64,000 bases of DNA, taken from positions 9,126-73,125 of the forward strand of contig CASEHD010000006.1 of assembly GCA_949287655.1 (NCBI GenBank). Direction: 5' to 3'. Under the pieces are notes generated by a model. It was given only the letters and a program-made list of their open reading frames with translations. It was not told where the DNA came from and searched no databases. Position 1 is the stretch's first letter. Each line of letters starts with the position of its first letter. Positions 6,888 to 48,535 of the stretch are shown here, piece by piece. The position numbers were made by a program, and so were the translations under genes. This DNA comes from an uncultured Christensenella sp. (GTDB lineage Bacteria > Bacillota > Clostridia > Christensenellales > UBA3700).

Positions 6888-7090
6888 ACTTTTTTTGCAG
6901 CCGCTCCTTTCCTACACCGTTTTTTTGCGCTTTTTTCCGTCTTTTTTACGCGTTTTTCGCAACACGTATTGAGTTATTCGCCTTTCTCTTTTTTTTGTTC
7001 TTTTTTCATTTTCTTTTTTTTCGGCGTTTATCGGCGCGGTTTTCGCCCCTTTTTCCGCATTATTTTAAGCCGTTTGCAAAAACTGATAAT

Positions 7091-8452
7091 ATGAAACGCT
7101 TTTTATCCTGTCTCACCGCCGCGGTATTGCTGTGCTTTTGCCTTTCCTTGTGCTCCTGCTCTTCCTTCTGCCCTACCTTTCCGGAAATAAGCGACAACTA
7201 CGAAAACCTCGCAAAAAGCGCGAAAATAACGCGCGTATCCGACGGCGAATACCTTATCGATTTTAAAAAGACGGTTACGTTGAACCGCCTCGTGCTCAGA
7301 GAAAGCACGGACGGCGCGATCTCTTTCTCTCTGCGCCTTCCCGGTTCTCCTTCCCCGTTTTACGGCAACGACTTTATCGGAAAATACCGCTACTGCTCTT
7401 TTCCCGCCGTCACTACGGACAGGATACTTCTTTCCGCGGTTTCAGAATGCGCGCTTTCTTTTTCCCGCCCGGAAGCATATTATATCCCGTCTTCCGTTCT
7501 CTCTTCTTTTTCCGTATATTCGTACATCACCGCAAAAGCCGCCTTTCTTATGGACGACGCCGAAAACCCGTCCGACGTGTTCGACATAATCTATTCCGCA
7601 TATATCGACAAAGACGGCGATGTCCGTCTGCCCGCTTACTACATCGGCGGCAAAAAGATCGCGGGCGAAACCGTGCTCTCTGCCGCCGTCTCCAATATCC
7701 GCGCCGCGTTCCCCCGCGCCAGAGTGCTCGCGACGATACTCGGTGACCGCGAATTCGACGACGACGGGCTTAATTTGCAGCAGCGGTATTCTTCCGCATT
7801 TTCAAACAGAGACGCGCTGTCATTATCTCTTCTCGATCTCGTCTCTTCATACGGGCTGGACGGGATATCTTTCGACTACGAATACCCGGTTTCGGAAAGC
7901 GACTTTTCGCTTTTTGCGGATTTCTGCGCTCATTTCAGAAACGTTCTGCCGAAAGACAAACAGCTGACCGCCGCCGTCAGCGCATGGTGCGTGGACGGGT
8001 CGCGCCTTGACGCAGACTCTCTCTCTTGTTTCGACCGCGTCACGCTGATGGCGTACGATACCCCCGACTCCCGCGGCTGTCACTCGACTTTTTTCAGCGC
8101 GTATTCCCAGCTCCTGCGTCTTAAAAAAGAAGGGGTCCCCCTCTGCAAAATATCGCTGGGAATCCCTCTCTACTCCAAACCGCTCGACGGCTCTTCCTCC
8201 GCCCTGTCTTACGCCGACTACGCCGACGTCCTGCCTTTTTTCTGCAACGTCGCTGCCGCCGACTGCGACGGCAAAGTCAGACAATGTTATTTCAACGGCA
8301 GACAACTCGTTTCCGATAAGTCCTCTCTCTCCGGCGATATAGGTCTCGCCGGAGTCTCCGTATGGCACTATTCCCTCGACAGCGCCGACCCGGCGCTCTC
8401 CCTTATCGCAACAGCCTACCGCGCAAGCGGCCGCGGGCAGACAGCCATGTAG
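7091..8452 (+). CDS. glycoside hydrolase family 18-like lipoprotein
   Basis: ATG at 7091 gives MKRFLSCLTAAVLLCFCLSLCSC signal/lipobox; LDGISFDYEYP resembles the GH18 DxxDxDxE catalytic motif (middle D replaced by S). The upstream 6605-7090 part of the ORF is open only because it is T-rich. Confidence 0.7.
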   Translation: MKRFLSCLTAAVLLCFCLSLCSCSSFCPTFPEISDNYENLAKSAKITRVSDGEYLIDFKKTVTLNRLVLRESTDGAISFSLRLPGSPSPFYGNDFIGKYRYCSFPAVTTDRILLSAVSECALSFSRPEAYYIPSSVLSSFSVYSYITAKAAFLMDDAENPSDVFDIIYSAYIDKDGDVRLPAYYIGGKKIAGETVLSAAVSNIRAAFPRARVLATILGDREFDDDGLNLQQRYSSAFSNRDALSLSLLDLVSSYGLDGISFDYEYPVSESDFSLFADFCAHFRNVLPKDKQLTAAVSAWCVDGSRLDADSLSCFDRVTLMAYDTPDSRGCHSTFFSAYSQLLRLKKEGVPLCKISLGIPLYSKPLDGSSSALSYADYADVLPFFCNVAAADCDGKVRQCYFNGRQLVSDKSSLSGDIGLAGVSVWHYSLDSADPALSLIATAYRASGRGQTAM

Positions 8453-10149: not shown

Positions 10150-10642
10150 AGAATAATACCCTCGGTAATTATTCTCACAATTCCGCCCCCGCGAAATTCA
10201 TAATCTCATCTCTTTCTTTCCCGCGACATTATATTACAAATTTTAAAAAAGCGTATACTTTTTTCATCAAATTTTCAAAAAATTTTTTACGGTTTTTTCT
10301 CCGCCTGTCTTCCCGCCCGTGTTTTCTCTTCGGACAGAAAAAAAGACTAAATTTTTATACTGTTTACGGATTTTTCGGGACAAACTTTTCTTGATTATCG
10401 GCATACGACGGCTCCGCAAATCAGAGCTGCGCTTTTTATTCTGTTACGTTTTTTATATATCTTGCAATTTGTTTTCACGGCTTATCCGGCTTTTTCTTTT
10501 AAGTAAATTTTCCTTTTTGATTTTTTACCCCTGCTCCGCCACTCCCGGCCCGCGTTTACGCCGGCGTCGGCGCGTGCAAAAAAAAGGACAGACCGCTCAT
10601 AAGGCGCAAAGCGGCGGAATATAATTGTTCAAGGAGGCGTCT

Positions 10643-10921
10643 ATGCAAAACAATGAGAATTCAAAAAAGATTTACCCAAGCGCTCAGCTTGATTTTTCAA
10701 CCGGGATAACTCTGAACGGGATAACTGAGATCGTCTCGTCTTCGGACAAGACTTTCGTTGCCCGCGCGGGCGAGGAAGTGTTGACCGTTCAAGGCGAAAG
10801 ATTGAGACCCAAACTGATAGACATCGAAAAAAACACCGCCGTACTCGGCGGCAGAATATACGCCGTATCGAGCAGCAAACAATTAACGCCCAAAGGCTTT
10901 TTCGCGAAAATTTTCAAATAA
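10643..10921 (+). CDS. yabP: sporulation protein YabP
   Basis: GGAGG RBS 6 nt upstream; about 92 aa with the ITLNG...VSSSD...LTVQGERL...GRIYAVSS pattern of YabP; followed by a yabQ-like gene. Confidence 0.7.
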   Translation: MQNNENSKKIYPSAQLDFSTGITLNGITEIVSSSDKTFVARAGEEVLTVQGERLRPKLIDIEKNTAVLGGRIYAVSSSKQLTPKGFFAKIFK

Positions 10922-10922
10922 C

Positions 10923-11288
10923 GTGACAGAGCCCGGCTTGCAATTTTCAATACTCCTTTCCCTTTCCGGAACAGGTATTGCCGTCGGCGGCGTCCTGGCG
11001 GCGCTCGACTTTGCCGACAAATGCCTGGGCGGCAGACGGTTTTTACTTTTTTTATCGGAATTTACCGTCACGATCGCGGGAGGAGCTCTGATCTGGCTGG
11101 TCGTTCTCTTTATGAACGACGGCGTTTTCAGACTGTTTTTCATTCTGCCCACGGCGTTTTTTGCGGTATTTTGCTATATATGTATTCTGAAATTGCTATC
11201 CCCCCGCATCGAAAAGGCAAAATCTGCGCTGAAACGCTTCAAACGTACCCGCGCGGGCAGTTTTCTAGTCAAATATATTCTAAAATAA
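10923..11288 (+). CDS. yabQ: spore cortex biosynthesis protein YabQ-like membrane protein
   Basis: GTG start 1 nt after the yabP stop; small protein with 3-4 TM segments; conserved yabP-yabQ pairing. Confidence 0.6.
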   Translation: MTEPGLQFSILLSLSGTGIAVGGVLAALDFADKCLGGRRFLLFLSEFTVTIAGGALIWLVVLFMNDGVFRLFFILPTAFFAVFCYICILKLLSPRIEKAKSALKRFKRTRAGSFLVKYILK

Positions 11289-11512
11289 AGCATTTTAACC
11301 GTTTTTTATATATTTTTTACTCAAAATAATGCTAAAACCTAAATTTAATTTTTGATACTTTTCTCAACCTGTTTTTAGTTATTCCTACTTTCTTAAAGAT
11401 TATATATCTGTTAAAAATATCCGATTTGTCCTGTATTATCCGGTTTTAAGCTTCTTTATCCGACCGGCTTAAATAATTACGCGCGTAATATAGGATTTCC
11501 GGCTATTCCGTC

Positions 11513-12160
11513 TTGTGCCGCGCGTTTCCCCCTTTTCTTCCGCTTTTTCCCGGGTTTTCCTTTGTTTATCGGTCTTTCCGGGGTTTTTCTGAACTTTTCG
11601 CCTTTTTACCGGGTTTTTTGCTCAAAAAGCCTTTGTTTACCGATCTTTCAGCCGTTTTTGTCTGTTTCCCCCTTCTTTCCCGTGATTGCCGGTTTTTTTC
11701 GCCGAAACACCGATACAATCTTACTTTTCGAGATTTTACGCTCTTTCCTCCTCTTAGCGTTATCTTTCGGATGTTTTCGAGTGTTTCCGGGCGTTTACCT
11801 CTGTTTTACGCCCGTATATGCCTTTTTGCCCCTGTAAGCCGCTTTTCTCGCCTGTTTCCGCTTGTTTTTCCCTTTTCACGTTTTCACCTTGTTTTTCGGC
11901 GATTTTCCTCTCTTTCGACCTCTTTTCCTTATCTCCCATTCTTTACGGCTGTTTTTGCGGATTTTTCTCCTTTTCCCTTTAACCGTCGCCGCTTTCGCTG
12001 TCTTTAAGCGGTTTAACCCCTTCTCCGCCGATATTTCCTCTTTTTTCGACTTTTCCCGCCCGATTCCTCTATCCGGTTGCCTTTTCACCTTAAAACGGCT
12101 TTTAGAGCCTTATTTCTGCGTCTCTCCCGTTTTTCTCCTTTCCTTAGGCTTTTCGCGTTA
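11513..12160 (+). repeat. helically phased T-tract array (A-poor, T/C-rich on the plus strand)
   Basis: A run of at least 3 T occurs in 16 of the 18 consecutive 10-nt blocks from 11521 to 11700; 11521-11620 contains 50 T and 4 A; degenerate longer repeats such as cctttgtttaYcgRtctttc about 71 bp apart. Confidence 0.85.
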
Positions 12161-12170
12161 TATCGCATAT

Positions 12171-12198
12171 AAAAAGGGCGAAGCCGTCGCTTCGCCCT
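12171..12198 (-). terminator. intrinsic terminator downstream of the TrmH-family gene
   Basis: 10-bp stem agggcgaagc-cgtc-gcttcgccct with a T-run on the minus strand. Confidence 0.6.
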
Positions 12199-12342
12199 TG
12201 TATTTCGGCTGTTTTCACATATTTTTCACCTTTTTCGAGGAGAAACCCGAGACCGGATCTAAACGCGCCGCAGACGTTTATTTCACACCCGTAACGGCTT
12301 TTTCTTTCACGGATCGGCTTCCGCTTTTCTGTTAGAACAAGC

Positions 12343-13212
12343 CTACCTTTTCAGATAGCCTTTGTTTTTCAGACTTGCCTCGTAACATACGACCGTTGCC
12401 GCCACTCCGACGTTCAGAGAATCGCATTTGCCGAACATCGGTATCGAAAGCAGTTTTACGTCCTTATCGTACCAACCGCGCGATATTCCGTATCTTTCGC
12501 TTCCCATCACGAAAGCGCAGCGTTTGCCGTACGGATATTCGTAATAGCTCTTCTCTGCCCGGCTGTCCGTAAGATATATCTCAAAACCTCTCTTCGCCAG
12601 AGCGTCGTAGCATTCGTCGGCGTCCGCAAACTCGACGATCGGAATATTCAGAATGCTCCCCATACTGGATTGCAACAGTTTGGGATGCGTCATTCTGGCT
12701 TTACGGTTGCAGATAAACACCGCGTCCACTCCCGCGCCGTCCGCGACCCTTATCATCGTACCGACGTTTCCCGGAATCTCGACCCCGTCGAGGACCAACA
12801 CCACGCTTTTGTCGGTAAAGGAGATATCTCCCGCTTCCGACATCGAAAAATACGCGATACTCATCACCCCGTCAGGCTTTTCTCTCTCACTTATTTTTCC
12901 GAAAGTCCTGGCGCTTACGGTAAATCTCTGATCGCAGGCTTTCGCCATCTCTTCGACCAGTTTCGCCGCCTCTACGGTATAGACTTTTTCGGGACAGATA
13001 ATTATCGCATGAAGCGGAGAACACGCCTCTACGAGCATCTTGTTGAACCACAGCCCCTCCGCCACGTACTGCCTGGCCGGATTGGGTTTGGAGTTGGACG
13101 AGAGCGCCTTTATGTGCTTGACTATCGAATGGCTGTCTCCGACCGCATAAAACCTGTATCTTGCGGTAACGTCGGATATAATTTCCGCCGCCGCTTCGCG
13201 TTCGTTCTGCAT
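12343..13212 (-). CDS. TrmH/SpoU-family RNA 2'-O-methyltransferase
   Basis: ATG at 13212 with AGAGGTGA RBS; motifs LVLDGVEIPGNVGTMIRVADGAG, VMGSERYGIS and IPMFGKCDSLNVGVA match SpoU methylase motifs 1-3. Confidence 0.8.
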   Translation of the reverse strand: MQNEREAAAEIISDVTARYRFYAVGDSHSIVKHIKALSSNSKPNPARQYVAEGLWFNKMLVEACSPLHAIIICPEKVYTVEAAKLVEEMAKACDQRFTVSARTFGKISEREKPDGVMSIAYFSMSEAGDISFTDKSVVLVLDGVEIPGNVGTMIRVADGAGVDAVFICNRKARMTHPKLLQSSMGSILNIPIVEFADADECYDALAKRGFEIYLTDSRAEKSYYEYPYGKRCAFVMGSERYGISRGWYDKDVKLLSIPMFGKCDSLNVGVAATVVCYEASLKNKGYLKR

Positions 13213-13379
13213 TTCTTCACCTCTTTTATACTTACAAGATACCACACCCGCAGACTATATTCAAGCGTTTACCGCCCGCGCCGGATAAGACCCCCGAAAA
13301 GACTCTTAACAGCCGCCCCGAACTATGCCGCGCTATACGCCGGTAAACACCGTGCCGCCTTTACGCAAAAGATTCTTTA

Positions 13380-13990
13380 ATACCTCCCGGCGCAAGCCCG
13401 TCAAAGTCATCGAAGTTTTTGCAAAATCACCGAAAGCCGGCCCCGTGCAAAGTCTTCAACGCCCTCTAACACGTCGCGTTTAAGCTTTCGCAAAACAAAA
13501 AAAAGCACGATCTTCGACACAACGAAGAGCATCACCGAAGTCGCCGCAGTCCGGGTCCCCTCCGAAAGCTCTCCTTCAATCTTCAAAGCGGCATACCGAC
13601 TCGCTTGAAATCCGTCTTACGCAAGTACTTCGACGCCCATCGAATTAGCTTCCGTAAGCCCGCCGAGATCACGCTGCAGATCGAAAAACGATAAAATCAA
13701 CCCGCCGATTTATTTACGAAAAAAAATTTAACGAATTGCACAACTTCAAAAAAACACAAAACGGAGATACCGCCGGCGATAAACAACGGTTTCGATATCC
13801 GACGAAAGCCCGCAAAACACCGGCGGGATTGCAAACGTACGTTGAAAAAACAAGGCGCGCACGGCTGAAAAAGCAAAAGAGCAGGGAAGGACACGCCTTC
13901 TTTCAACAAAAAGGAATGATAAAATGATCGGTACAGAAAGTAACAGGCAAAAAGAAGCTTTCAAACCGCTGATTTGTCAACGAAATTCCG
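13380..13990 (-). repeat. A-tract-rich arm (T-tracts on the minus strand), left of the 14.0-14.24 kb centre
   Basis: Plus strand dominated by caaag / gcaaaa / cgaaag type A-runs; mirror image of the array to the right of 14250. Confidence 0.5.
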
Positions 13991-14032
13991 CAAAAAGGGT
14001 TAGCAATCGGATTTTGATAATTAATTGTAATA

Positions 14033-14059
14033 AATGTTTCACAAAACCTGTGAAACATT
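14033..14059. promoter_or_regulatory. split parS-like palindrome
   Basis: aatgtttcac-aaaacct-gtgaaacatt: both parS half-sites (TGTTTCAC / GTGAAACA) separated by 7 bp. Confidence 0.4.
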
Positions 14060-14217
14060 GGCAAAAATTTTTTTGTTTTTGAAAAAATAAGCCGATTTTT
14101 GTCTATAAAATTATAACCGGATTTTATGGTAAATCAGACGGTTTTGATAAATATGGTTTATATTATACTCATATATGTTATATTTTAGCATATTTTCGGC
14201 TGGATTTTGTCGAAAAT

Positions 14218-14233
14218 TGTTCCGCGTGAAACT
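14218..14233. promoter_or_regulatory. parS-like site (14/16 match)
   Basis: tgttccgcgtgaaact versus Firmicute parS TGTTNCACGTGAAACA. Confidence 0.45.
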
Positions 14234-14249
14234 TTTTAAAATCGCAAGT

Positions 14250-15650
14250 GACAACGAGTTTGCCAAGGCGCTCAAAAGCCCCCTCTTTTTGCCATGAACA
14301 ACCGCCTCTCCGGCGCAACGCCTCTCGCCGACACTTTATACTGAACGCGTTTTCCGAAAACTCGCCTCAGCGCGACTCCCGGCACTTTTTCCGAATATTC
14401 GTTTCCGCGCCTCGCGCCGATAAGGAATTCGAAAACCTCTCTCTGCTCGTACTATCGTCGGCGGGCAGAGCAACGCCCGTGCAACCAAAACTCTATTTAG
14501 ACGTTCTTTACGCGTTTGCGCTTTTTGCGCTTTTTCTACTGTTTTATAAATTGCATATTATCCGTCTTTATTTCGGCTGCGTCAACGTTGACGTTAAATC
14601 TCCGATCGTTCGTTGCGCGTGTACGCGCTCTTTTTTTGTTTCCTACGTTAAAGCCGAAACCGTCACGATCTTTTTGCAAAACGCTTGCGGCTCGATGCCC
14701 TGACGATTTTGCGCTTATACCGTTATCCTGTAAAATCAGACCTCAAGCGGCATCAATGCATATTTTTTCAAATCGCCTTTATTTATACTTTTTATGCTTT
14801 TTCCTCTGTGTATCACTATACGTTATATATTAACTCTTTCGTTACGCTCTTTTCATTGGTCGGATCCTTTTATCCCCTTAGTCTTTGCGCTTATTTTCTT
14901 ATTCTTTGCTTGTTTGATCAACTTCACCCTCTATATGCTCGCGCAAGGCGTTTTTATCAAGCCGACGGGCTTTGCCCTTAACGACAGGCGAAAGAACGGC
15001 TCAAAATGCTTTTTACACGGTCCGCCGGCTGCGTTTCGATATTCTGCGTTTAAGACAAAGGTTGTTTCTTGTTTTGCACAACCTCGTCGTCTCCTACGAC
15101 GTGCCCGATAAAGATCTGACGTCCTTGTGTCAGCTCTCGCATTGCACCTGCGTTTGTATTGACAGCTCGCCTCTCGCGGAAGAGTAGCCTTATACTTCTT
15201 TCGTCACTTCTTTTGATTGTTACGCCGGCTTTATTCTCGACGGGACTCGCGGCGCTTTTTCACGCGATTTTCTTTATGTTTCACATGAAACAAAGCTTTT
15301 TTTGCGTTTTTGCTTTGTTTTTTCTATTAAATATTCTCGCTCTGTCCTTATCAATGAATTTTGTTTCCGATTTTGCAATTCTTACTTTTGTCTGATGTTC
15401 TTTGCCTCCGGTTTTACTTTGCCGTGCTTTTATTGCGAAATTTAAACGGCTTAAAAATAAATGCGACATGCCGGAACTGTCTCGCGCTCTCCGGATATTT
15501 GACTCTCAAACGGCAGGAGAGGGCGGCTTTCCTTATCCCGTTTCCGGTTTACGCCGTCTTCTTCTTTGTAATCTCTTTCAGAATATTTGCGCTTTACCGT
15601 TTTTTTATGCTCTCGATTTTATTTTGATAATGCCTTTTAATTGCTCTATG
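14250..15650 (+). repeat. T-tract-rich, A-poor array (plus strand)
   Basis: Recurrent cttttt / gttttt runs roughly once per 10 bp; all three plus-strand frames stay open for long stretches because stop codons are rare. Confidence 0.65.
15277..15292. promoter_or_regulatory. parS-like site (15/16 match)
   Basis: tgtttcacatgaaaca versus TGTTTCACGTGAAACA. Confidence 0.55.
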
Positions 15651-15989
15651 TAGCGCGAAGCGTGAAAAATTTCTAAAATTGCACTTGTATGCCTTCTGTG
15701 AAGCTTTTTAAGCCGATACGACCTTCTTTTGCCTTTTTATCGGTATTTTCTCGCGCATACCGACAAAGTATATATCCGTATAACGCCGTTTATCGGCAGC
15801 TTCCTTTCTTTATCTTACTCCCGACAAACAGATGTTGGTTCTATATCCGTGTTATGCCGCAAGCGCTCGGACTTTTCAGACATTATCAAACGGCTCCCGG
15901 TTGTTATACCGTCAAATCTACAAATATCGCGGTAACATTAAACCTTATTACGCTTTAAATCGACCCGTAATCGCCGCACCCGCCGATCT

Positions 15990-16800
15990 TTAAAGCCCGA
16001 TCCGGACTTACGACGACCGCAGCTAATACTTTGCGTATAAAAAGCCGTTACGGCTGGCGTACATTAACGATCTTTTCGTTGCTACAACCGTTATTCGTTC
16101 TCAGAATCGGAAAAGAGCGTTTTCACCAAAGCTTCGGACAATCTGCCAAAGGTCGACGATCGGCAAAAGAGCGCTTAAAGCGAAAACGAACAGCACGCAA
16201 AAGCCGTCTGAAATGATAGCCTCATACCGCAAACGCCCCGGATCGTCCGCGTATATTGAAGGGAATACGCATTTAGCGACATAAAACAATCGCGAGCACA
16301 AAGAAATCGGAAACCGGAACGCCAAAACGCCGGCTTGCTTACAAAAAAGTTGTCGCCCGGTCGTCGAAATATTCTTGCCCGAACATCGACTCACGATTTT
16401 TACGCCGTTCAGACAAAGACCTTCCTTTGAACGTACCGGCAGGTAATTACAACGCCACGGTCATTACCTAAGGAGGCAAAAGTCGACGAATAACACCGGA
16501 ATAATATAGAGAGCCGGCGAATTACGTAAGCCGCGGCACAATAAGCCGGCGTTCTTGTCCGTAACGCCCCGCGACAAACTACGCCTTTTTACCGATTGCG
16601 CATAGGGCAGAGCGAAACATCGCGATCGTCATTCTACATACAGAGGAAAAAGATAGCAGAGCAAGGATTAGCGTAAAAAGTAATCGCGTTTAACGATAAG
16701 CGCGTCGACTTACCTCCGGATCTCCGATACGTCCTCATAATGCCGATCAATAACAGGGCAGCGCCCGTCGTTATGAACGGTTTTTCTTTATAAATCAAAA
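15990..16800 (-). repeat. A-tract-rich arm (T-tracts on the minus strand), left of the DnaA-box cluster
   Basis: Plus strand rich in gaaaag / gcaaaag / cgaaaac runs; polarity opposite to 14250-15650 and 17440-18100. Confidence 0.5.
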
Positions 16801-16816
16801 CAGAATTGTTCAGATT

Positions 16817-17245
16817 TGTGGATAAAATCGCGATACAGGGCATTTTAAACGCCGTTTTACTTATCCGGTCGTCAATTTTGTTTTCAAAGTTTTTTCTGTT
16901 TGAGTTATCCGCATAAACGGTCTTTACCGTATTCTCGCGGCAAGTCTGGCATTGTTGTTGATAAACGTTTATATACTGACCGTTAAGTTTCGCTTTTTGT
17001 CTTCCGCACCTTCCGGGTCGCGGGCAAATTTTGAAACTTTAACCGCTTAAACCGTTATACCCGCGCAATATTGCTTTTACCAATGTGGATAACTTATTTG
17101 AAACGAACGGAAAAGTGCCACATTTTTATCAAGTTTTCGACATTCTTTGATAAATTCGTTAATTTCCGCTATTCCCGACGGTCGTTGTAGATAACTTAAT
17201 TCAAAAACTGTTTCATGTGAAACTTTTTCGAAACCGTTATCCACA
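16817..17245. promoter_or_regulatory. DnaA-box cluster upstream of rpmH with no adjacent dnaA
   Basis: Perfect boxes tgtggataa (16817-16825, 17084-17092) and ttatccaca (17237-17245). One-mismatch boxes ttatccgca (16905-16913), tgttgataa (16956-16964) and tgtagataa (17186-17194). Confidence 0.8.
17209..17224. promoter_or_regulatory. parS-like site (14/16 match) inside the DnaA-box cluster
   Basis: tgtttcatgtgaaact. Confidence 0.4.
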
Positions 17246-17439
17246 ACGCCGTTTAAAGGTCTTTTTTCGTTTTTATACCTGTGTTTCCCTTAAAAAGCGG
17301 TTGTGATTCGGCGAATTTCCGGCATTATTCCGGGTTTGCTTCGTCCGATCGGGAGTTCTTTAAAGAGACAATGCCCCTCGGCTTACCGCGATACGGTTCG
17401 TCTAAGCCTTCTTTTCGTCAAAAAGCAGAAAAGAGCAGG

Positions 17440-18100
17440 CATATTTTGCCCGGTAAACACAACCCGAGACGCCTATATTACACATATTATTTCTTTTTTT
17501 CTGACTTTCGAACTTCTTATACTTTTCGATATTTTCTTTCTTGTCATTTTCTTAAATATCGCGCTGCTTTTTGACTTTACCGCTTTTATTCGCGCACTTT
17601 TGTCCGCTTCGCCTTTATTTACAATTATGAAAACGCAAGAGATGAGAGCTCTTTGCCTTTTATCGCGTTTTCGAGTCGTTTTTTCCTCTTATACTTGTAT
17701 TTTTTATTTGCTGCCCGTTAAAATTACCGTAAAATCACCCGATTCTATGCTAAAAAGGTTTGAAGACATGATTTTATCTTTTTTCGTCCTTGATTTGTTT
17801 ATAAAGGCAAAACAGCCTGATCTGCAACATTTTGCCTGTTAATCGGCATATTATTTTCGTTTTTTGACTTATCCGCATGCTTATCTGCAACGCAATAAAA
17901 ATGCGCCGCCTTTTCCGGTCTGGACTCTGTGTGAACTACATGTCTTCCGCATTTAATACACGTTTGTCCGTCAATATTTCTCTTGTTGCTAATATATCTA
18001 TTGGTTATACGCGCCTTTTTCATGTCCCTTTTTTATTATTTGTTCTGCATTTTCCGTTATCTTTATTCTTTTAATTTTCCCGGACTTTCGGAAACCGGAA
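17440..18100 (+). repeat. T-tract-rich, A-poor array (plus strand)
   Basis: ttcttttttt ctgactttcg aacttcttat acttttcgat attttctttc ... pattern; right arm of the DnaA-box centre. Confidence 0.6.
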
Positions 18101-18712
18101 GAAACCGCATAACCGGCTTTTTATTATTCGTATCCGCATCGGACGGCAAAATGCCGCGATCATCATTTTTAGCGATATTTTTAATAAATCGGTTGCAAAA
18201 CAAATCGTCCGTCATGCAGAACAAGGGAAAAGGGTATCGGCGGAAACAAATAATTGCGAAAAGCCTCGGCTTACTTTTTCTCTTGCCGCTCGGGTCGCTG
18301 TGTGGCTGTCGTACAAGCTTTGCGAATTGTAAAAGGTTCTGATAGATTATGAGAGCCTGAATTTGATTTTGCCGCTTTTTGTAAAACAATTCGACCCGCT
18401 GATTGACAAATCGGTAAGAGTGACCGTAATCGTAAAATATACCGCGACGACAAACTTTTAAACCCGTCATCGTCTCAGGTCGGCAGGATATTATTTTCCC
18501 GGCGAAACAAGTGCGGATTTTCGCGGCGATCATGGTCTCAGGGCACGGGCAGCGATCGGCCGGCTTTGCAAAAAGCCCCGGCTCTTCGCCCTGCGGACAG
18601 AAGCGGACGACAGCGATCGCGAAAACCGGGAGAGTATCCTCTCAGACGGACGTGCCGGCGCGTCTTCTCATGCGCACGCGTTTACAATTTCGTTTATACA
18701 AAGTAAAAATCC

Positions 18713-18742
18713 TTGACACGCCTTCTTTATTTATATTATAAT
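18713..18742 (+). promoter_or_regulatory. sigma-A-type promoter for the rpmH operon
   Basis: TTGACA-18 nt-TATAAT, about 105 nt upstream of rpmH. Confidence 0.6.
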
Positions 18743-18848
18743 ACATTCGCTATTGTGGAAAACAGTTCGCTTTTCGCGCTCTTTTTTCCGCGCCGCACCC
18801 GTTTGCGGAAGCTGTATAACGACAATACTAAAAAGAGAGGATAGATTT

Positions 18849-18983
18849 ATGAAAAGAACGTTCCAACCCAAGAAACGCCAGCGCAGCAAAGTGCACGGTT
18901 TCAGAAAGAGAATGAGTTCTACCGGCGGCAGAAACGTCATCAAGAGACGCAGAAACAAAGGCAGAAAGCATCTCAGCGCGTAA
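18849..18983 (+). CDS. rpmH: 50S ribosomal protein L34
   Basis: [44 protein letters not shown]; GAGAGGA RBS. Confidence 0.97.
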
Positions 18984-26297: not shown

Positions 26298-27038
26298 TCA
26301 CGACGTAATTGCTTTGTATAAATTTTTCAACTGATCCGATGTCGGATTTTCGTCTATTATTACCCATCTTATTGTCTTTATTATAAGCGGAATGTTTTGG
26401 CTTTCCTCAGCTCCTTTTATCATGACGGGCACTATCTTCGCGCCGCAGGCAAGCGCCTTATTAAGTTCCATATTTGCAAATCTTCTATTTAAAGAATTTT
26501 CACTGCACAGATAGACGAATACGCCTTCTTGTGAAGTTCTTATTATCTCATCGCCCACATTAATAAAATCAAATTCCACGTCTTTTTTTAAATCAAACAC
26601 ATTAAATCCTCTTTCTTGCAGATAATCAGCCAGCTTTTTCTGAACATGAAAGTCTTTTACGGAACAACTTATAAATATACGATTTCTTTTTATCATATCG
26701 GCTATACTCTTTATCAAATCTATCATACCGTATTTAAAATCTTTTTCAATGTCTATTTCGTAAAATCTGCTTTCATCAATACTTTTAATATATGCAAGTT
26801 CTTTCTGTACCCACTTAGACTGTTCCGAGTTTTCACTCTTGCAATAAAGAAAAATATTACGAGCTTCTATCTCTCTTTTTATAAAATCTTCAAGCTCGAC
26901 GTTGTTGTCGTCAAGACATTTCATAAAAAAAATAAGCGGTTCACAGTTAAGAATTTCAAGAATATCCCTTATCTTTCTTACCTTTTCAACGTCTTTGTGA
27001 GAATGAGATAAAAATATAGTGAGTTTTTCTTCGTTCAT
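26298..27038 (-). CDS. protein with two tandem TIR-like domains
   Basis: IFLSHSHKD...SKWVQKELAY (domain 1) and IFISCSVKD...FANMELNKA (domain 2). Gene is much more AT-rich than its flanks. Its stop lies 2 nt from the rsmG stop. Confidence 0.7.
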   Translation of the reverse strand: MNEEKLTIFLSHSHKDVEKVRKIRDILEILNCEPLIFFMKCLDDNNVELEDFIKREIEARNIFLYCKSENSEQSKWVQKELAYIKSIDESRFYEIDIEKDFKYGMIDLIKSIADMIKRNRIFISCSVKDFHVQKKLADYLQERGFNVFDLKKDVEFDFINVGDEIIRTSQEGVFVYLCSENSLNRRFANMELNKALACGAKIVPVMIKGAEESQNIPLIIKTIRWVIIDENPTSDQLKNLYKAITS

Positions 27039-27409: not shown

Positions 27410-28279
27410 ATGGCTAAAAAATCGGAAGACCGTTCAACTATCGATCTCGCTATTAAGCTGGCAAGCGACGATACTAAAGACGAAACCGTTACTCAGATCG
27501 AATCAAAACTGATAGACACCAATCCCAATCAACCCAGAAAGCATTTCGACGAAGAAAGTCTTAACGAGCTGGCTGTAAGCATTAAAAACTACGGCGTAAT
27601 ACAACCCATTCTCGTTTGCCCGAAGGAAGGCGGAAGATACGAACTTATCGCCGGCGAGAGAAGGTTAAGGGCGAGCAAGATGGCGGGGCTTTCTTTTATC
27701 CCCGCGATAGTAAAGAAATTTACAGAATCGGAAATGGCGGAGATCGCACTTATCGAGAACTTGCAGAGAGAGGATCTCAACCCGATAGAAGAGGCGAGGG
27801 CGTACCGCTCGCTGATGGAAAAATATGGTTTCACGCAGGAAGAACTTGCGGACAAGCTGGGCAAGTCAAGACCGGTAATCGCTAACAGCCTGAGACTTTT
27901 ATCTCTTAACCCTGTCGTCGTAGAGATGGTTGAGACTAACAGACTTTCGGCAGGACATGCAAGATGCCTCGCCTCGATAAAGGATATGGGAGTACAGGCG
28001 ACCTACGCGCTCGCCGCTTGCGACAAACAGCTTTCGGTAAGACAGCTTGAAAATATGGTCAGGGCATACTTAAAACCGGGCAAACAACCCAAGACCCCTA
28101 AAAAGGCGTTTATTTCTCCTGAGCTAAAAGAGCTTGTAAACAACATGCAGCGCACTTTCGGCACTAAGGTTAAGGCTGTCGGCAACAACGAAAAAGGCAG
28201 AATCTTTATAGATTATTATACAAAAGACGACCTTATCAGAATTTACGAGCTTATAGACTCTTTGTCAGAGCAGGAGTAA
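27410..28279 (+). CDS. parB: ParB/Spo0J/Noc-family chromosome partitioning protein
   Basis: GVIQPILV, LIAGERRLRAS and IALIENLQREDLNPIEEA motifs plus an HTH; no parA/soj gene adjacent. Confidence 0.9.
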   Translation: MAKKSEDRSTIDLAIKLASDDTKDETVTQIESKLIDTNPNQPRKHFDEESLNELAVSIKNYGVIQPILVCPKEGGRYELIAGERRLRASKMAGLSFIPAIVKKFTESEMAEIALIENLQREDLNPIEEARAYRSLMEKYGFTQEELADKLGKSRPVIANSLRLLSLNPVVVEMVETNRLSAGHARCLASIKDMGVQATYALAACDKQLSVRQLENMVRAYLKPGKQPKTPKKAFISPELKELVNNMQRTFGTKVKAVGNNEKGRIFIDYYTKDDLIRIYELIDSLSEQE

Positions 28280-29285: not shown

Positions 29286-30401
29286 TTATCTATTAAAGCC
29301 GCCGCGCAGCGGAAGAATCATATACAAATACCCGTCCCCTTCCACAGGCGATATAGTACTGGGAGAAGTGGGATTGGTAAGACTCAGTTTTATAAACTGA
29401 TCGTCTATTACCTTCATGCAGTCGAGAAGGTATTTAGAGTTGAAGAGTATTGTCATATCCTTACCGGTAGAGAAGACGGAAATCACCTCTTTGACGTCGC
29501 CCAGTTCGCTGTTGGAAGAGATAGTCATTTTGCCGCCTTCCTTTATTTCTATCTTTATCATATTAGACTTTTCGAAGCGGCTCATAACGTAAGATCTTTC
29601 CAGGCTGTTTTCGAGCATGGTCTTGTCGATCGTGATTACGGTCTCAAAGCTTGCCGGTATGCTGGATTCATAGCGGGTAAACACGCCTGTCATAAGGTTG
29701 CTTATGATCTTTGTGTGTTTCATATCGACCATTATCTTCTTGGGGCAGAAGTTAAGGCTGACGACTTCTTCGTCCTCTTCGAGAAGCTTATATATCTCGC
29801 TCAGATTTTTAGCGGGAATTATAGCGGTCGTTTCGGGATATTCCATAACGAGTTCCTTTAATGTCACCGCGAGGCGGAAGCCGTCGAGAGCGACGCACTT
29901 TATCTTATTTCCCTTAATTTCTATAAAACATCCTTTAAGAACGGGTCTTACGTCGTCTGTCGCGGCGCAGAAGATGGTCTTTCCTATCATATCCTTTACG
30001 TCCTTTTGCAGCATATCGACTGATATCTCGTAGTCGTATTGCTGTATGGGCGGGTAGTCTTTAAGCTTCATAGCCTTCAAGGTCGTTTCGCTGTCCATAT
30101 ATTTGATGACAAAATTCTGTTCGTCCATATAAGAAAGCTCTACGTCTTCGTCGGAGGGGAGCTTTCTTACCAGTTCTCCGAAGAGTTTGCCGGGAACGAG
30201 CGCTTCGCCTTCCATTTTTACGTCGGCGGTTATTGTTTTCTGAATTGCGAATTCGGTATCAGTAGCGGTCAGGGTAAGAGAATTGCCTTCCGCCGTGAGT
30301 TTTATACCTTCGAGAATGGGCATGGTCTTCTTTATAGGAAGAGCCTTCATGACTCTTGCCAGTGCTTCAGAGAGTAAGTTTCCTTTACAGCTTAATTTCA
30401 T
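29286..30401 (-). CDS. dnaN: DNA polymerase III beta sliding clamp
   Basis: ATG at 30401 preceded by GGAGGA; MKLSCKGNLLSEAL... about 371 aa; follows dnaA. Confidence 0.92.
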   Translation of the reverse strand: MKLSCKGNLLSEALARVMKALPIKKTMPILEGIKLTAEGNSLTLTATDTEFAIQKTITADVKMEGEALVPGKLFGELVRKLPSDEDVELSYMDEQNFVIKYMDSETTLKAMKLKDYPPIQQYDYEISVDMLQKDVKDMIGKTIFCAATDDVRPVLKGCFIEIKGNKIKCVALDGFRLAVTLKELVMEYPETTAIIPAKNLSEIYKLLEEDEEVVSLNFCPKKIMVDMKHTKIISNLMTGVFTRYESSIPASFETVITIDKTMLENSLERSYVMSRFEKSNMIKIEIKEGGKMTISSNSELGDVKEVISVFSTGKDMTILFNSKYLLDCMKVIDDQFIKLSLTNPTSPSTISPVEGDGYLYMILPLRGGFNR

Positions 30402-30434
30402 ATGTCCTCCACGCCCTTTTTTACTCAAGGGCTA

Positions 30435-30606
30435 ATTATTACGTATTTAATTTTAATAAATCGATAATAAAAATCTTAATAAGGGATGTGGATATGTGGA
30501 TAAGATTTTTTTAAAGCTTTTTATCCTCACATATTAAGATTTTTTTATCCATATACACGTTTGGAAAAGCTGTTGATAAAACCGAAAAGTTTTCCACTTA
30601 TCCAAA
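30435..30606. promoter_or_regulatory. dnaA-dnaN intergenic DnaA-box cluster with an AT-rich unwinding-type segment (candidate oriC core)
   Basis: Boxes: tgtggatat (30487-30495), tgtggataa (30495-30503, perfect), ttatcctca (30521-30529), ttatccata (30545-30553), tgttgataa (30571-30579) and ttatccaaa (30598-30606). The 30435-30485 segment is almost pure A/T, with TAA TAA AAA TCT TAA TAA abutting GGG and the tandem boxes. Confidence 0.75.
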
Positions 30607-30615
30607 CGGCGCGGT

Positions 30616-31986
30616 TTATTTTTTCTGTATCATCGCCTTTATGTCGTTTACCTGCGCCTGAATGAGCTTGTCTGATTTACAAAGGCTGGTTATCTTATCG
30701 CGGGCGTACATGACCGTCGTGTGGTCCTTGCCGAAATAAGAAGCGATACTTGTCAGGGGCAGACCGAGTATGTCGTTTATAAGATAAATAGCGATCTGCC
30801 TTGCGAGAGCGATATTCTTCATCTTCTTCTTACCGACTATATCGGCGCGCTTTATGTTGTAATAAGTGCATGTAGCGTCCACGATATTATCGATTGATAT
30901 GACGTGGGTAGAGACGTTGATATAATCTTTCAGCGCCTCTCTGGCGGTATCTATGTCGCAAACCTCTTTTTTTTCGAGAGAGCAGAAGAAAAAGACTTTT
31001 GAAAGAGCGCCTTCAAGTTCTCTTACGTTTGAAGAGATATTTTCGGCGATAAAGAATAACACGTCGTTACTTACGCTGAATTTTTTGAGTTCGGCTTTCT
31101 TTTTCAGGATTGCGACTCTTGTCTCTACCGACGGGTTGGTTATATCGACGGTAAGACCGCATTGAAATCTCGATTGAAGTCTTTCTTCGATAAAAGTAAG
31201 TTCTTTGGGATGGCGGTCGCTCGAAAGCACGATCTGTTTTTTGTTCTGATACAGGTCGTTGAATGTATGGAACAACGCTTCCTGAGAGCTCATTTTACTC
31301 GAAAGAAACTGCACGTCGTCTATCATAAGGACGTCGGCGTTGCGGTACTTTTCGCGGAAACTCTTATTGAGTTTATTGTCGCTTATCTTTGAAGCCTGTC
31401 TTGAAGGAGACAGGGAATCTATAAATTCGTTGACGAACTGTTCGCTCGTAACGTAAAGTATTTTCTTTGTTTTGTCTACTGAATGAATATAGTTGCCGAT
31501 AGCGTGCAGAATATGAGTTTTGCCTAAACCTACTCCGCCGTAAATAAAGAGGGGGTTATAGAGTACGCCCGGGTTTTCCGCGACCGCTTTCGCCGCGCTT
31601 GACGCGATGTTGTTGCAGTCGCCGACGACAAAATTGTCGAATGTATAAGAGGGATTTAATATATATTTGAAATCGTCCTCTTCCGTCTTTGTTTCTGCGG
31701 GTTGAAAGGTCTCTTTTTCAGGTTTGTAATTTTTTGCTTCTTCTTCCGTAATAACGATGATATCGGTCACGTAAGAGCCCGATTTTTCAATGGCGTCCCT
31801 GACAACGGTATTCTTAAAGCCGTCCACGGTCTTTTTGACGGAGACGAGCGGGGCGACCATTATCAGTTTATTGTTTTCTATCGTAAGAGGGACCAGTTTA
31901 CCGAACCACATCTCATAGCTTACGGTAGACATCGCCGCTTCGATATAAGAAGAAATATCTTTCCAGATTTTTACGCTTTCGTTCAT
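30616..31986 (-). CDS. dnaA: chromosomal replication initiator protein DnaA
   Basis: 456 aa; Walker A GGVGLGKTHIL, AAA+ sensor motifs, C-terminal DnaA-box-binding domain ...DHTTVMYA. Confidence 0.97.
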   Translation of the reverse strand: MNESVKIWKDISSYIEAAMSTVSYEMWFGKLVPLTIENNKLIMVAPLVSVKKTVDGFKNTVVRDAIEKSGSYVTDIIVITEEEAKNYKPEKETFQPAETKTEEDDFKYILNPSYTFDNFVVGDCNNIASSAAKAVAENPGVLYNPLFIYGGVGLGKTHILHAIGNYIHSVDKTKKILYVTSEQFVNEFIDSLSPSRQASKISDNKLNKSFREKYRNADVLMIDDVQFLSSKMSSQEALFHTFNDLYQNKKQIVLSSDRHPKELTFIEERLQSRFQCGLTVDITNPSVETRVAILKKKAELKKFSVSNDVLFFIAENISSNVRELEGALSKVFFFCSLEKKEVCDIDTAREALKDYINVSTHVISIDNIVDATCTYYNIKRADIVGKKKMKNIALARQIAIYLINDILGLPLTSIASYFGKDHTTVMYARDKITSLCKSDKLIQAQVNDIKAMIQKK

Positions 31987-48349: not shown

Positions 48350-48535
48350 GATTTTACAAAGACCGTAACCGGAACATAAGAAAACGTTTCCAAACGACGG
48401 ATTTTGCTGTGTGTTTTGGCGACACGAACGAAGATAACGGTATACATATTTTCAAGTGAGCGTCGGCAAAAGACACGTCAAAGACGCGTATCAGAAACGC
48501 GTTTATATGCTTTCGTTGCGGTATAAAAAATAAAT

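Follow-up and report, generated by a model that had tools for sequence, protein, structure and literature searches.

The yabQ/TrmH spacer

The DNA analysed here, referred to as the window, is a stretch of 64,000 nucleotides (64 kb) from an uncultured Christensenella sp. of the gut (Christensenellaceae). The stop codon of a yabQ-like gene and that of a convergent SpoU/TrmH-family RNA methyltransferase gene are separated in it by a spacer of 1054 bp (11289-12342), which holds a conserved leader, a palindrome and a long array of phased T-tracts. An initial annotation had recognised the array and placed it in about 0.8 kb of gene-free DNA. The spacer is non-coding, as was stated there, but it is longer than that, and the leader and palindrome, which belong to the element as well as the array, had been overlooked. 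The features are as follows.

10625-10921, plus strand: yabP-like gene, upstream of the yabQ-like gene (weak Pfam match to YabP, E = 7.9e-5, under the curated cut-off)
10923-11288, plus strand: yabQ-like gene, left flank (weak Pfam match to Spore_YabQ, E = 0.0086, under the curated cut-off)
11289-11475, plus strand: conserved AT-rich leader of about 200 bp, from the yabQ stop codon to the palindrome
11379-11384 (-35) and 11401-11406 (-10), plus strand: promoter-like site 1, weak, facing the array
11411-11416 (-35) and 11434-11439 (-10), plus strand: promoter-like site 2, weak, facing the array
11476-11489, no strand: perfect palindrome of 14 bp, ATTACGCGCGTAAT, at the leader end nearest the array
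11513-12160, plus strand (A-tracts on the minus strand): T-tract lattice, 53 runs of 3-7 T with a period of 9.94 bp
11559-11572, plus strand: sub-motif CCTTTRTTTAYCGR, copy 1 (CCTTTGTTTATCGG)
11630-11643, plus strand: sub-motif, copy 2 (CCTTTGTTTACCGA), 71 bp after copy 1
12174-12199, minus strand: G+C-rich terminator hairpin of the TrmH-family gene, with an 11-bp stem, then TTTTTATAT on the minus strand
12200-12342, minus strand: 3' untranslated region of the TrmH-family gene
12343-13245, minus strand: SpoU/TrmH-family RNA methyltransferase gene, right flank, convergent with yabQ (Pfam SpoU_methylase, E = 1.5e-36)

The TrmH-family gene also includes an MRM3-like substrate-binding domain (Pfam) and, as its homologues are 288-290 aa long, the ATG at 13212 is probably the true start. 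By Pfam, the neighbours of the array are MatE, yabP, yabQ and TrmH, and no Pfam-recognisable ORF was found in the next 5.6 kb. DnaA boxes and parS-like sites are clustered 4.7 kb from the array. The order of the yabP- and yabQ-like genes is kept across all relatives, among which the yabQ proteins are just 43-55 % identical.

The array contains plus-strand ORFs of 164 and 157 aa and minus-strand ORFs of 50-70 aa, and composition alone (one strand poor in A, its complement poor in T) accounts for their freedom from stop codons. No 3-bp periodicity was detected (power 1.3, against 6.9 and 19.7 in the neighbouring TrmH and MatE genes) and the array contains no Pfam match. A decayed gene had been considered initially, and among 5.8 billion proteins no homologue was found. 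The array is non-coding.

No Rfam family was found in the spacer at the gathering score, the sole hit in the window being an FMN riboswitch at 48532. A match to the ylbH leader lies over the hairpin, at 30.8 bits for a gathering score of 50. Membership of this family was rejected, as the sub-threshold score is driven by the TrmH terminator hairpin and purine-rich sequence. Hairpins of like orientation are located 111-144 bp past the TrmH stop codon in L001, L002 and L006. The TrmH 3' untranslated region contains a short, separate run of phased plus-strand T-tracts (at 12203, 12212, 12222 and 12231), which is in a different register from the main lattice.

Three further identities were dropped. 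The arrays contain TTATCGG without the CACA part of a DnaA box, TTTCGAC, as in Spo0A boxes, is present in only a minority of units, and H-DNA or triplex formation was set aside because the plus strand is only about 75 % pyrimidine and the pure runs, judged by eye, are short.

Periodicity, composition and predicted curvature

The phasing of the T-tracts is real, and chance falls far short of explaining it. A run of at least three T had been counted in 16 of 18 ten-base blocks from 11521 to 11700, and 50 T and 4 A in 11521-11620; both counts were reproduced, and the pattern, said to continue to about 12160, corresponds to a lattice spanning 11526-12151. The runs in 11513-12160 comprise 23 of three T, 17 of four, 10 of five, two of six and one of seven. 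Between 11526 and 12151, a run of at least three T is found within 2 bp at 48 of the 64 points of a single 9.94-bp lattice, and 91 % of the 53 tracts are no more than 2 bp off one such lattice. The resultant length (R) is 0.74, compared with 0.27 +/- 0.04 for random placement (z = 10.9). The comparison with shuffled sequence that had been proposed gave a sharp peak in the Fourier spectrum of the T indicator, at 9.9 bp and with a power of 15.2, whereas 500 dinucleotide-preserving shuffles had a mean of 2.1, an sd of 0.5 and a maximum of 4.5. Autocorrelation of T peaks at 10, 20, 30 and so on to 79 bp. The measured period is 9.9-10.0 bp rather than 10.5 bp.

The base composition of 11513-12160 is 44.6 % T, 29.6 % C, 15.9 % G and 9.9 % A. 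The spacers between tracts are 72 % G+C and C-biased (C:G 1.9:1). The plus strand is A-poor, as had been reported, because all of the tracts are T and never A and the spacers are G+C-rich; however, the spacers themselves are not depleted in A, which at 16 % is no rarer there than T (12 %).

The commonest unit of the array is TTTTC followed by G/C-rich bases. Apart from the T-tract and, less strongly, a C directly after it, units have little in common, and unit-to-unit identity at non-T positions is 0.14-0.25 at every offset. TRF (11000-12600, minimum score 30) reported nothing, the units being too diverged; head-to-tail copies alike in sequence, by which a minisatellite is recognised, are thus not what the array consists of. 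The longer repeat pairs described initially were recovered at 11559/11630 (71 bp apart) and 11524/11664 (140 bp apart). The origin proposed with them, namely tandem duplication and then drift that kept the phase, agrees with units that are little alike and with an indel of exactly 10 bp between strains (see below).

Phased tracts are confined to this locus in the window. The 13 strongest 300-bp windows for periodicity in the 64 kb are all inside 11351-12300. Uniform spread through intergenic DNA had been raised as a possibility, and none of 13 other T- or A-tract-rich intergenic stretches in the 64 kb is phased (z <= 0.9). T-tract-rich intergenic DNA is frequent in this genome.

Curvature of DNA by helically phased A-tracts is textbook knowledge, and T-runs of at least three, helical phasing and a bend in wedge models are all found here. 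Curvature was predicted using two independent dinucleotide wedge models implemented in our own script, and all bend figures are predictions from these models. The predicted total bend over 648 bp is 724-744 degrees, compared with 335-404 +/- 33-46 in shuffles, and with both models it is about twice the background of the window. The predicted dihedral is below zero for 57-89 % of 21-bp steps and has a negative circular mean in each species; synthetic helices and synthetic tract arrays served to check the sign convention. As the lattice (9.9-10.0 bp) is slightly below the B-DNA repeat of the two models (10.3-10.55 bp per turn), a left-handed superhelix is expected rather than a planar curve. The array is therefore predicted to be a persistently bent left-handed superhelix; the curvature that was initially expected is borne out by both models, although not as a planar curve. 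The coil would bend by about 25 degrees per 21 bp and make one superhelical turn per approximately 160-200 bp, with a radius of roughly 45-70 Å.

Relatives and rates of change

A one-strand lattice is present in the same convergent yabQ/TrmH spacer in all nine relatives with a TrmH that is 72-87 % identical (L001-L006, L139, L140 and L141). The period is 9.9-10.0 bp and the strand is the same in each, while array length ranges from about 0.36 to 1.6 kb, with about 50-110 tracts per array, and the arrays cannot be aligned between species. A relative with a TrmH that is 68 % identical has the same gene order, no lattice and other repeats in the spacer and, judging from this genome, the lattice is dispensable. 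The element is specific to one Christensenellaceae clade. Several of the relatives' assemblies end within a few hundred bases of the array, and the array may hence be under-represented in metagenome-assembled genomes.

In the window, phase is maintained over 625 bp, and in L006 over about 1.1 kb (R 0.67-0.74). When the observed spacings are placed in shuffled order, R falls to 0.36-0.39, at p < 0.001 for five species out of seven. L001 has strong local phasing but weak global coherence (R = 0.38).

Among three near-identical strains, 4.0 % and 6.1 % of T-tract positions differ, compared with 7.2 % and 12.1 % of spacer positions (Fisher p = 0.002 for the more distant strain pair). Four-fold degenerate sites of TrmH differ by 5.0 % and 8.3 % in the same pairs. 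Hence, between close strains, T-tract positions change at half the rate of the spacers. One indel between strains is exactly one 10-bp unit. In a simulation that used the observed indel:substitution ratio, R started at 0.74 and was down to 0.40-0.48 after 0.5-1 substitution per site, whereas species that have diverged past alignment are still at R 0.57-0.72. According to this model, neutral small indels would erase the lattice.

The leader and palindrome are the sole part of the spacer that aligns collinearly (seven species, leader identity about 70 %). Invariant blocks in the leader are CCGTTTTTT (11301-11309), GTTAT (11378-11382) and T.TAT (11401-11405). RNAalifold, run on both strands of the leader, found pairing only in the palindrome and 0 compensatory pairs, and similarity of the leader to other non-coding islands in the 64-kb window was not significant. 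The left half of the palindrome, ATTACGCG, does not vary among the seven species, of which four retain an intact right half. In L139, the variants are ATTACGCTCGTAAT and two more half-copies, with a TATAAT-like hexamer after each. The palindrome occurs once in the window, even with up to 2 mismatches allowed, and a literature search for its sequence returned cloning primers only. A dimeric protein might bind there; an identity as a ParB/Noc or RacA-type site, which the palindrome may resemble, was considered and dropped.

Two to six copies of the sub-motif, 68-80 bp apart and at a similar distance from the leader, are present in the window, L001, L002 and L006, and the sub-motif is degenerate or absent in L003-L005. 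A metagenome scan for two copies 50-70 bp apart retrieved six unrelated repeats and no array; all six lack both T-tract periodicity and yabQ/TrmH neighbours. When six TTT at 10-bp spacing were used as a generic pattern against viral contigs, the matches listed were noise and the high scorers mostly had other periods.

Interpretation and comparison with known systems

Retention of the T-tract and, more weakly, of its C, with free spacer sequence, is what would be expected if shape matters and sequence does not. An architectural scaffold, a U-rich transcript and a satellite had been offered initially as interpretations and, among these, the comparative evidence favours constraint at the DNA level. 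We tentatively take the array to be an architectural element, selected at the level of the DNA and dependent on helix face, a reading in which our confidence is somewhat short of even. The element would act as double-stranded DNA. Because the tracts are on one lattice of helical period, the A·T tracts all face nearly the same side of the duplex, and a preformed coil, or a row of narrow minor grooves on one face, could constitute an origin-proximal architectural scaffold. Such a scaffold could wrap or align a nucleoid or segregation protein, or could fix the geometry and topology of the DNA between two convergent genes, and the leader and palindrome at one end would be its likely sequence-specific entry or control site. 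Both the scaffold role and any protein partner are inferred.

Some properties fit this DNA-level reading poorly. Plain curvature needs neither tracts on one strand nor an excess of C over G, and the strand purity and C excess point to a strand-specific process, a polar partner, or a legacy of duplication together with replichore skew. The inward promoter-like sites, including a good one in L139, and the hairpin look like a transcription unit. The weak coherence in L001, the relative without a lattice and the absence of a partner gene nearby are further points against it.

A lesser but appreciable possibility is that the array specifies a long pyrimidine-rich transcript (0.7-1.7 kb, about 45 % U and 30 % C, largely unstructured) and that the RNA, or the act of transcribing it, is functional. 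It would run from a leader promoter, under control of the palindrome, to the hairpin shared with TrmH, or else be a long 3' UTR of yabPQ, and might act as a sponge for some protein with affinity for single strands rich in U and C, as an anti-Shine-Dalgarno decoy or as a zone for Rho loading. Strict strand purity and an orientation to the leader that is the same in all species would suit a transcript. Array-facing promoter-like hexamers are found at conserved leader positions in several species, and in L139 a 10/12 match (TTGTTA-17-TATAAT) spans the palindrome; however, these matches are weak, their -35 is not conserved, and their number does not exceed that in shuffles (1 found against 1.6 expected). 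After yabQ, no strong terminator was detected, and the hairpin that follows the array could also end plus-strand transcription, with the tail TTGTATTT, but its T-tail is better on the TrmH strand. There is neither an Rfam match nor covariation in the leader alignment. Both strands fold better than shuffles and about equally so (z = -2.7 and -3.3), and folding therefore picks no strand. Finally, single-stranded RNA explains neither a 10-nt period nor the compensation of spacing errors over hundreds of nucleotides.

A more specific proposal, which we consider rather unlikely, is that the array is a genetically encoded DNA solenoid, a bacterial counterpart of nucleosome-positioning sequences or centromeres, in which a polar protein filament nucleated at the leader or palindrome wraps or tracks the left-handed, one-face lattice. 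The nucleoprotein body, situated in the origin-proximal domain, might then aid anchoring or segregation of the origin, for example in sporulation, or be a topological barrier, and the 9.9-10.0-bp period and strand purity would be read-outs of the geometry and polarity of the filament.

It is unlikely that the array is an old 10-bp minisatellite without function, maintained through unequal recombination in register and slippage at T-tracts, in a spacer where junk is tolerated, with the lattice as a historical residue. The variable length of arrays that cannot be aligned between species, spacers that evolve at or above the rate of four-fold sites, the exact 10-bp indel, the other repeats in place of a lattice in the TrmH-68 % relative and the general abundance of T-tract-rich intergenic DNA in the genome would all fit this origin. 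However, adjacent units are unlike one another, and ongoing homogenisation is thus not what keeps the pattern. The halved rate at T-tract positions, the loss of the lattice at observed small-indel rates long before alignability is lost, its retention in nine of nine relatives and the unphased state of other T-rich intergenic regions also speak against a residue.

Quite unlikely, too, is a centromere- or iteron-like set of head-to-tail sites on which a sequence-specific protein, for example ParR-like with a ribbon-helix-helix fold or of the response-regulator type, polymerises along one DNA face from the palindrome or from CCTTTRTTTATCGG. Direct 10-bp repeats in a single orientation match the ParR-parC geometry, four species have two to six copies of CCTTTRTTTATCGG at a spacing of 68-80 bp with diverged DNA in between, and a conserved palindrome at one end and the parS-like sites and DnaA boxes close by would be in keeping with such a role. 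But both of the features by which centromeres and iterons are recognised, a conserved recognition sequence and either an adjacent gene for a binding protein or a mobile context, are lacking: units share little past TTT(T)C, no partner gene (parR/parM, tubR/tubZ or rep) was found within approximately 10 kb on either side, and the whole spacer had no blastn match in collections of plasmids and phages. In addition, L003-L005 keep the lattice without the sub-motif.

The array is very unlikely to be an oversized curved activator of the UP-element type, serving a leader promoter that fires away from it on the minus strand, antisense into yabQ. Promoters in clostridia and Bacillus are known to be activated by phased A-tracts that precede them, the minus-strand A-tracts of the array do sit upstream of the leader, and a perfect minus-strand TATAAT (11399-11404) has an aligned copy in L001, L005 and L006 (four of eight species with the window). 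Against this, L139 lacks the hexamer and L002-L004 have only degraded forms of it, no -35 could be recognised, a conserved product downstream is lacking, and a few promoter-adjacent tracts suffice for activation rather than 600-1200 bp. A decayed or unrecognised protein-coding gene has a negligible chance of being correct, since the long ORFs on both strands are a product of composition, period-3 power and homologues are lacking as described above, and a reading frame is incompatible with a 10-nt period.

The DNA-level element that we favour can be compared with several known systems. The bent helix of kinetoplast minicircles, with about 18 tracts over about 200 bp, is nearly planar. It shares with synthetic (A5-6N4-5)n and with the array one-strand A-tracts about 10 bp apart and strong curvature, predicted in the case of the array, which differs in its length (3-6 times greater), in lying on a bacterial chromosome and in its predicted superhelical shape. 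Centromeres wrapped by ParR include parC of R1 (11-bp iterons) and that of pSK41 (20-bp repeats). Like the array, plasmid centromeres are head-to-tail repeats on a 10-11-bp lattice, their DNA being superhelical when with protein; however, the repeats are conserved in sequence, span 100-200 bp and adjoin parR/parM, while the array is 0.4-1.2 kb long and has no partner gene.

In the plc promoter of Clostridium perfringens, phased A-tracts form an upstream activator. Such activators and UP elements are, like the array, helically phased A-tracts in Firmicutes intergenic DNA and act by shape, but they have 2-4 tracts directly upstream of the -35, whereas the array has more than 50 and serves no clear promoter. 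Nucleosome positioning involves AA/TT every 10.0-10.2 bp on a left-handed superhelical wrap. A period of about 10.0 bp, narrow minor grooves on one face and left-handedness (predicted for the array) are common to both, although the array is strand-pure and far more regular, and we know of no histone-like partner in this organism. The sponge RNAs CsrB and RsmZ carry their motifs in hairpin loops at irregular spacing and are demonstrably transcribed. They also are non-coding, several hundred nt long and made of many short motif repeats; in contrast, a putative RNA from the array would be largely unstructured, with strict lattice spacing.

A further comparison is with clusters of phased A-tracts in bacterial chromosomes, for which our literature search returned background papers only. 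These clusters are attributed to Tolstorukov et al. 2005 and Mrazek 2010 in PMC3940949, where the proposed role, in nucleoid architecture together with nucleoid proteins, is given as still debated, and a periodic signal of about 11 bp in bacteria is described in PMC4132750. As in the array, they are short A/T runs at the helical period with predicted curvature. However, they are a genome-wide statistic or short segments of mixed A and T, usually at about 11 bp, whereas the array is a discrete locus of 50-110 one-strand tracts at 9.9-10.0 bp, coherent over 0.6-1.1 kb and kept at one syntenic position in a clade. The locus thus carries the phased-tract signal in nearly pure form, on one strand and one lattice and with evidence of selection on phase. 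If functional, it would allow a clean test, in nature, of whether selection on a bacterial chromosome can act on DNA shape alone, and would be a handle for any protein that reads such a lattice.

Composition and periodicity of the T-tract array

The array of phased T-tracts (11513–12160, + strand) lies between convergent genes, and the features of the locus are as follows.

Features of the array locus (positions in the window)
10625–11288, + strand: yabP/yabQ-like pair, left flank
11289–12342: spacer between the convergent genes, 1054 bp
11379 (-35) and 11401 (-10), + strand: weak sigma-A-like site facing the array
11411 (-35) and 11434 (-10), + strand: weak sigma-A-like site facing the array
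11476–11489: palindrome ATTACGCGCGTAAT, which aligns between species
11559 and 11630, + strand: two copies in the array of the 14-bp sub-motif CCTTTRTTTAYCGR
12174–12199, - strand: hairpin, with the better T-tail on the TrmH strand
12343–13245, - strand: SpoU/TrmH-family RNA methyltransferase, right flank

The counts in the initial annotation, namely TTT in 16 of 18 ten-base blocks and 50 T and 4 A in 11521–11620, were all reproduced. Across the array, T makes up 44.6 % of the + strand, C 29.6 %, G 15.9 % and A 9.9 %. The low A content arises because the tracts are all T and never A and the spacers between them are 72 % G+C (C:G about 1.9); within these spacers A is no rarer than T.

The T-indicator spectrum has a single sharp peak at 9.9 bp with a power of 15.2, compared with 2.1±0.5 (maximum 4.5) in 500 dinucleotide-preserving shuffles, and the autocorrelation peaks at multiples of 10 out to 79 bp. 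On a lattice with a 9.94-bp period, 48 of the 64 points in 11526–12151 are occupied, and 91 % of the 53 T-tracts lie no more than 2 bp from a point. The top 13 signals of 9–11.5 bp, found using 300-bp sliding windows over the 64 kb, are all within 11351–12300. Intergenic DNA rich in T- or A-tracts is common in the window, with mostly T clusters up to about 30 kb and mostly A clusters beyond about 38 kb, and a helical lattice was found in none of 13 other such stretches (z≤0.9, versus 10.9 for the array). Hence the 10–11-bp peak over shuffles on which the initial annotation had made its claim depend is present, the other intergenic stretches are unphased, and the array is not a mere compositional quirk of the genome. 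Its description as a single locus refers to the 64 kb of the window plus about 0.2 Mb from related loci; a metagenome scan with the motif pattern returned nothing relevant.

A miniature T-tract cluster is found at 6900–7060, upstream of a GH18 lipoprotein-like ORF (ATG at 7093). It consists of runs of 5–8 T with G+C-rich spacers between, includes GTTTATCGGCG, and has weak Fourier power (about 3.5 at 10.6 bp) and a non-significant tract-lattice test. Separately, the 14-mer CGTTTTTTATATAT occurs twice in the window, upstream of yabP (10447–10460) and just past the yabQ stop (11300–11313; blastn-short E=0.04).

The array was rejected as a gene. Long ORFs are present on both strands because the composition is poor in stop codons; none matches Pfam, and a search of 5.8 billion proteins returned no homologue, so the search for a decayed coding gene, as raised initially, revealed no homology. 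The power of the 3-bp periodicity is 1.3, whereas the neighbouring TrmH and MatE genes reach 6.9 and 19.7. TRF detected no tandem repeat in the array, and the spacer matched nothing in plasmid and phage collections. Nothing in the spacer exceeded the Rfam gathering threshold. The best match, to the ylbH leader (30.8 bits against a gathering score of 50; local E=7e-5), is full-length at 12092–12207 on the - strand, spans both the hairpin of the TrmH terminator and the purine-rich beginning of the array complement, rests on the hairpin and is probably fortuitous. Folding is slightly more favourable than in shuffles for both array strands (z=-2.7 and -3.3) and therefore picks out neither.

Conservation in relatives and maintenance of phase

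The same kind of array occupies the same spacer in all nine relatives with a TrmH 72–87 % identical to that of the window (L001–L006 and L139–L141), with the tracts on the strand corresponding to the window + strand (A-tracts when read in locus orientation), a period of 9.9–10.0 bp and spacer lengths of 580–1822 bp. Arrays of different species cannot be aligned collinearly. The only alignable parts of the spacer (about 70 % identity) are the palindrome and the 200 bp adjoining yabQ, which comprise the AT-rich leader (11289–11475) with its invariant blocks. As the YabQ proteins are only 43–55 % identical, the leader is under constraint; no conserved RNA structure was found in it on either strand. 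The sub-motif CCTTTRTTTAYCGR recurs in L001, L002 and L006 (2–6 copies, 68–80 bp apart, at similar distances from the leader) and is degenerate or absent in L003–L005.

In the relative with a 68 % identical TrmH, the gene order is the same and the 861-bp spacer lacks the T lattice. Other repeats are found there (L145, 9027–9886), for example roughly 40-bp units around TTTTGCCCGA...GGCAAAAG and a recurring CGTCTTTCGCC, and the spacer may be a general hotspot of non-coding repeats in the family. Synteny was absent in more distant relatives. Three independent assemblies of relatives (L142, L143 and L144) end 136–380 bp downstream of the TrmH stop, where the array should start, which suggests that it breaks short-read assemblies.

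Phase was assessed using R, the resultant length measuring the coherence of tracts on one lattice. When the order of tract-to-tract distances was shuffled, R fell to 0.39 in the window (observed, 0.67) and to 0.36 in L006 (observed, 0.72), with p<0.001 for five of the seven species, and the spacing residuals have a negative lag-1 autocorrelation. Deviations in spacing are therefore compensated, not accumulated. In L001, local phasing is strong and global coherence weak (R=0.38), and the constraint on phase may act across a few hundred bp, not the whole array.

The strains L140, L141 and L001 are closely related, their yabQ–TrmH spacers being 91–94 % identical. Differences affect 4.0 and 6.1 % of positions within T-tracts, 7.2 and 12.1 % of those in the spacers between tracts (Fisher p=0.002 for the pair further apart) and 5.0 and 8.3 % of four-fold degenerate sites of TrmH. 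Thus, the spacers drift at about the neutral rate and the tracts at about half the spacer rate. The indels are about ten of 1–3 bp and one deletion of exactly one 10-bp unit. Simulating small indels at the observed indel:substitution ratio lowered R from 0.74 to 0.48 at 0.5 substitutions per site and to 0.40 at 1.0, and species with arrays past alignment still have R of 0.57–0.72. Neighbouring units are dissimilar, with no prominent higher-order repeat, and homogenisation as in a young satellite cannot therefore account for the lattice.

In these three strains, the array is also separated from the TrmH terminator by a tail of about 300 bp outside the lattice (L001, 7160–7300), with no counterpart in the window. 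It diverges by 2.4–3.7 %, less than four-fold sites (5.0–8.3 %), and includes a possible 38-aa ORF, MNYKGNTARNAYNAGKSGLSTVNSALLSGLYAIFAAIA, on the T-rich strand.

Possible transcription signals and origin-proximal setting

The hairpin at 12174–12199 is primarily the TrmH terminator, given its better T-tail on that strand and the same-orientation hairpins 111–144 bp past the TrmH stop in L001, L002 and L006; it could also stop + strand transcripts. The two sigma-A-like sites recur in position in the leaders of several species, and shuffled sequence yields at least as many promoter-like matches. In the leader of L139 (10020–10200; TrmH 72 %), a module made of a TTACGCG-type palindrome and then a TATAAT-like hexamer occurs three times in tandem. 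In the first, a 10/12 sigma-A-like match (TTGTTA-17-TATAAT) spans the palindrome and points into the array.

Origin-related features of the window
14218, 15277 and 17209: parS-like sites, close to the array
16817–17245: DnaA-box cluster upstream of rnpA with three perfect TTATCCACA, 4.7 kb from the array
29286–30428, - strand: dnaN
30487–30606: second DnaA-box cluster, between dnaN and dnaA, about 13 kb from the first
30616–31986, - strand: dnaA

The first cluster and the parS-like sites are in a 5.6-kb stretch from TrmH to rnpA (13250–18900), which contains no Pfam-recognisable ORF, alternates between T-rich and A-rich strand-bias blocks, and is conserved in relatives only in two short islands (14030–14240 and 17133–17245). 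At the corresponding place, the TrmH-68 % relative has unannotated ORFs of 160–230 aa. The gene order is unusual, the + strand carrying rnpA-yidC-jag and the - strand recF-dnaA-dnaN, and the cumulative GC skew stays flat between about 18 and 33 kb. A protein with a TIR domain (TIR_2, ThsB-like; 26298–27038, - strand) is encoded between rsmG and a lone ParB gene (27410–28279, + strand) with no adjoining ParA/Soj-sized ORF.

Predicted shape and interpretation

Curvature was modelled, not measured, with our own script and two sets of dinucleotide wedge parameters, Bolshoy-Trifonov and De Santis. The predicted bend is about 25 degrees per 21 bp, totalling 724–744 degrees over 648 bp versus 335–404 in shuffles. 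In the models, 86 % of window steps have a negative dihedral from one bend to the next, and its circular mean is negative in all seven species. The sign convention was verified on synthetic input: a right-handed helix gave a positive dihedral, and T5 arrays were left-handed at a period of 10, near-planar at 10.5 and right-handed at 11. From the mean bend and dihedral, the array would form a left-handed superhelix with one turn per 160–200 bp, a radius of 45–70 Å and a pitch of about 460–500 Å. DNA wrapped left-handed on a protein surface has a period closer to the 9.9–10.0 bp of the array than the usual bacterial signal has.

All of our statements on function are inferred. The helical period, phasing compensated over hundreds of bp, conservation of tracts and not of sequence, and a lattice kept past alignability tie the constraint to the double helix. 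On these four findings, and because flexible single-stranded RNA offers no rationale for a lattice, we tentatively rank first a DNA-level architectural element. The constrained property may be the intrinsic curvature of a superhelix, or else a row of narrow minor grooves, set as a lattice on one face and recognised by a protein.

Strand purity and C-bias are not accounted for by curvature alone, and they leave room for a functional + strand transcript or a polar binding partner. The transcript would fit both properties and, as RNA gives no reason for the lattice, is unlikely. A functionless drifting satellite is improbable in view of the compensated spacing, slower tract change, indel simulation and dissimilar units, even though the array is dispensable in the TrmH-68 % relative. 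A separate, sequence-specific version with a polar partner would again suit strand purity and C-bias, and we consider it doubtful, placing it after the satellite. An upstream-activator role is very unlikely, and a coding origin can be set aside with near certainty.

The array period is unlike the usual signal of bacterial genomes, which is about 11 bp (PMC4132750). Curvature produced by phased A-tracts is itself a known type of feature, and what it does in bacterial nucleoids is a matter of continuing debate (PMC3940949). In the literature searched there is no published description of a discrete, strand-pure lattice of 50–110 tracts at one conserved locus in a bacterial clade, and the chief interest of the array is that selection on DNA shape becomes directly testable.
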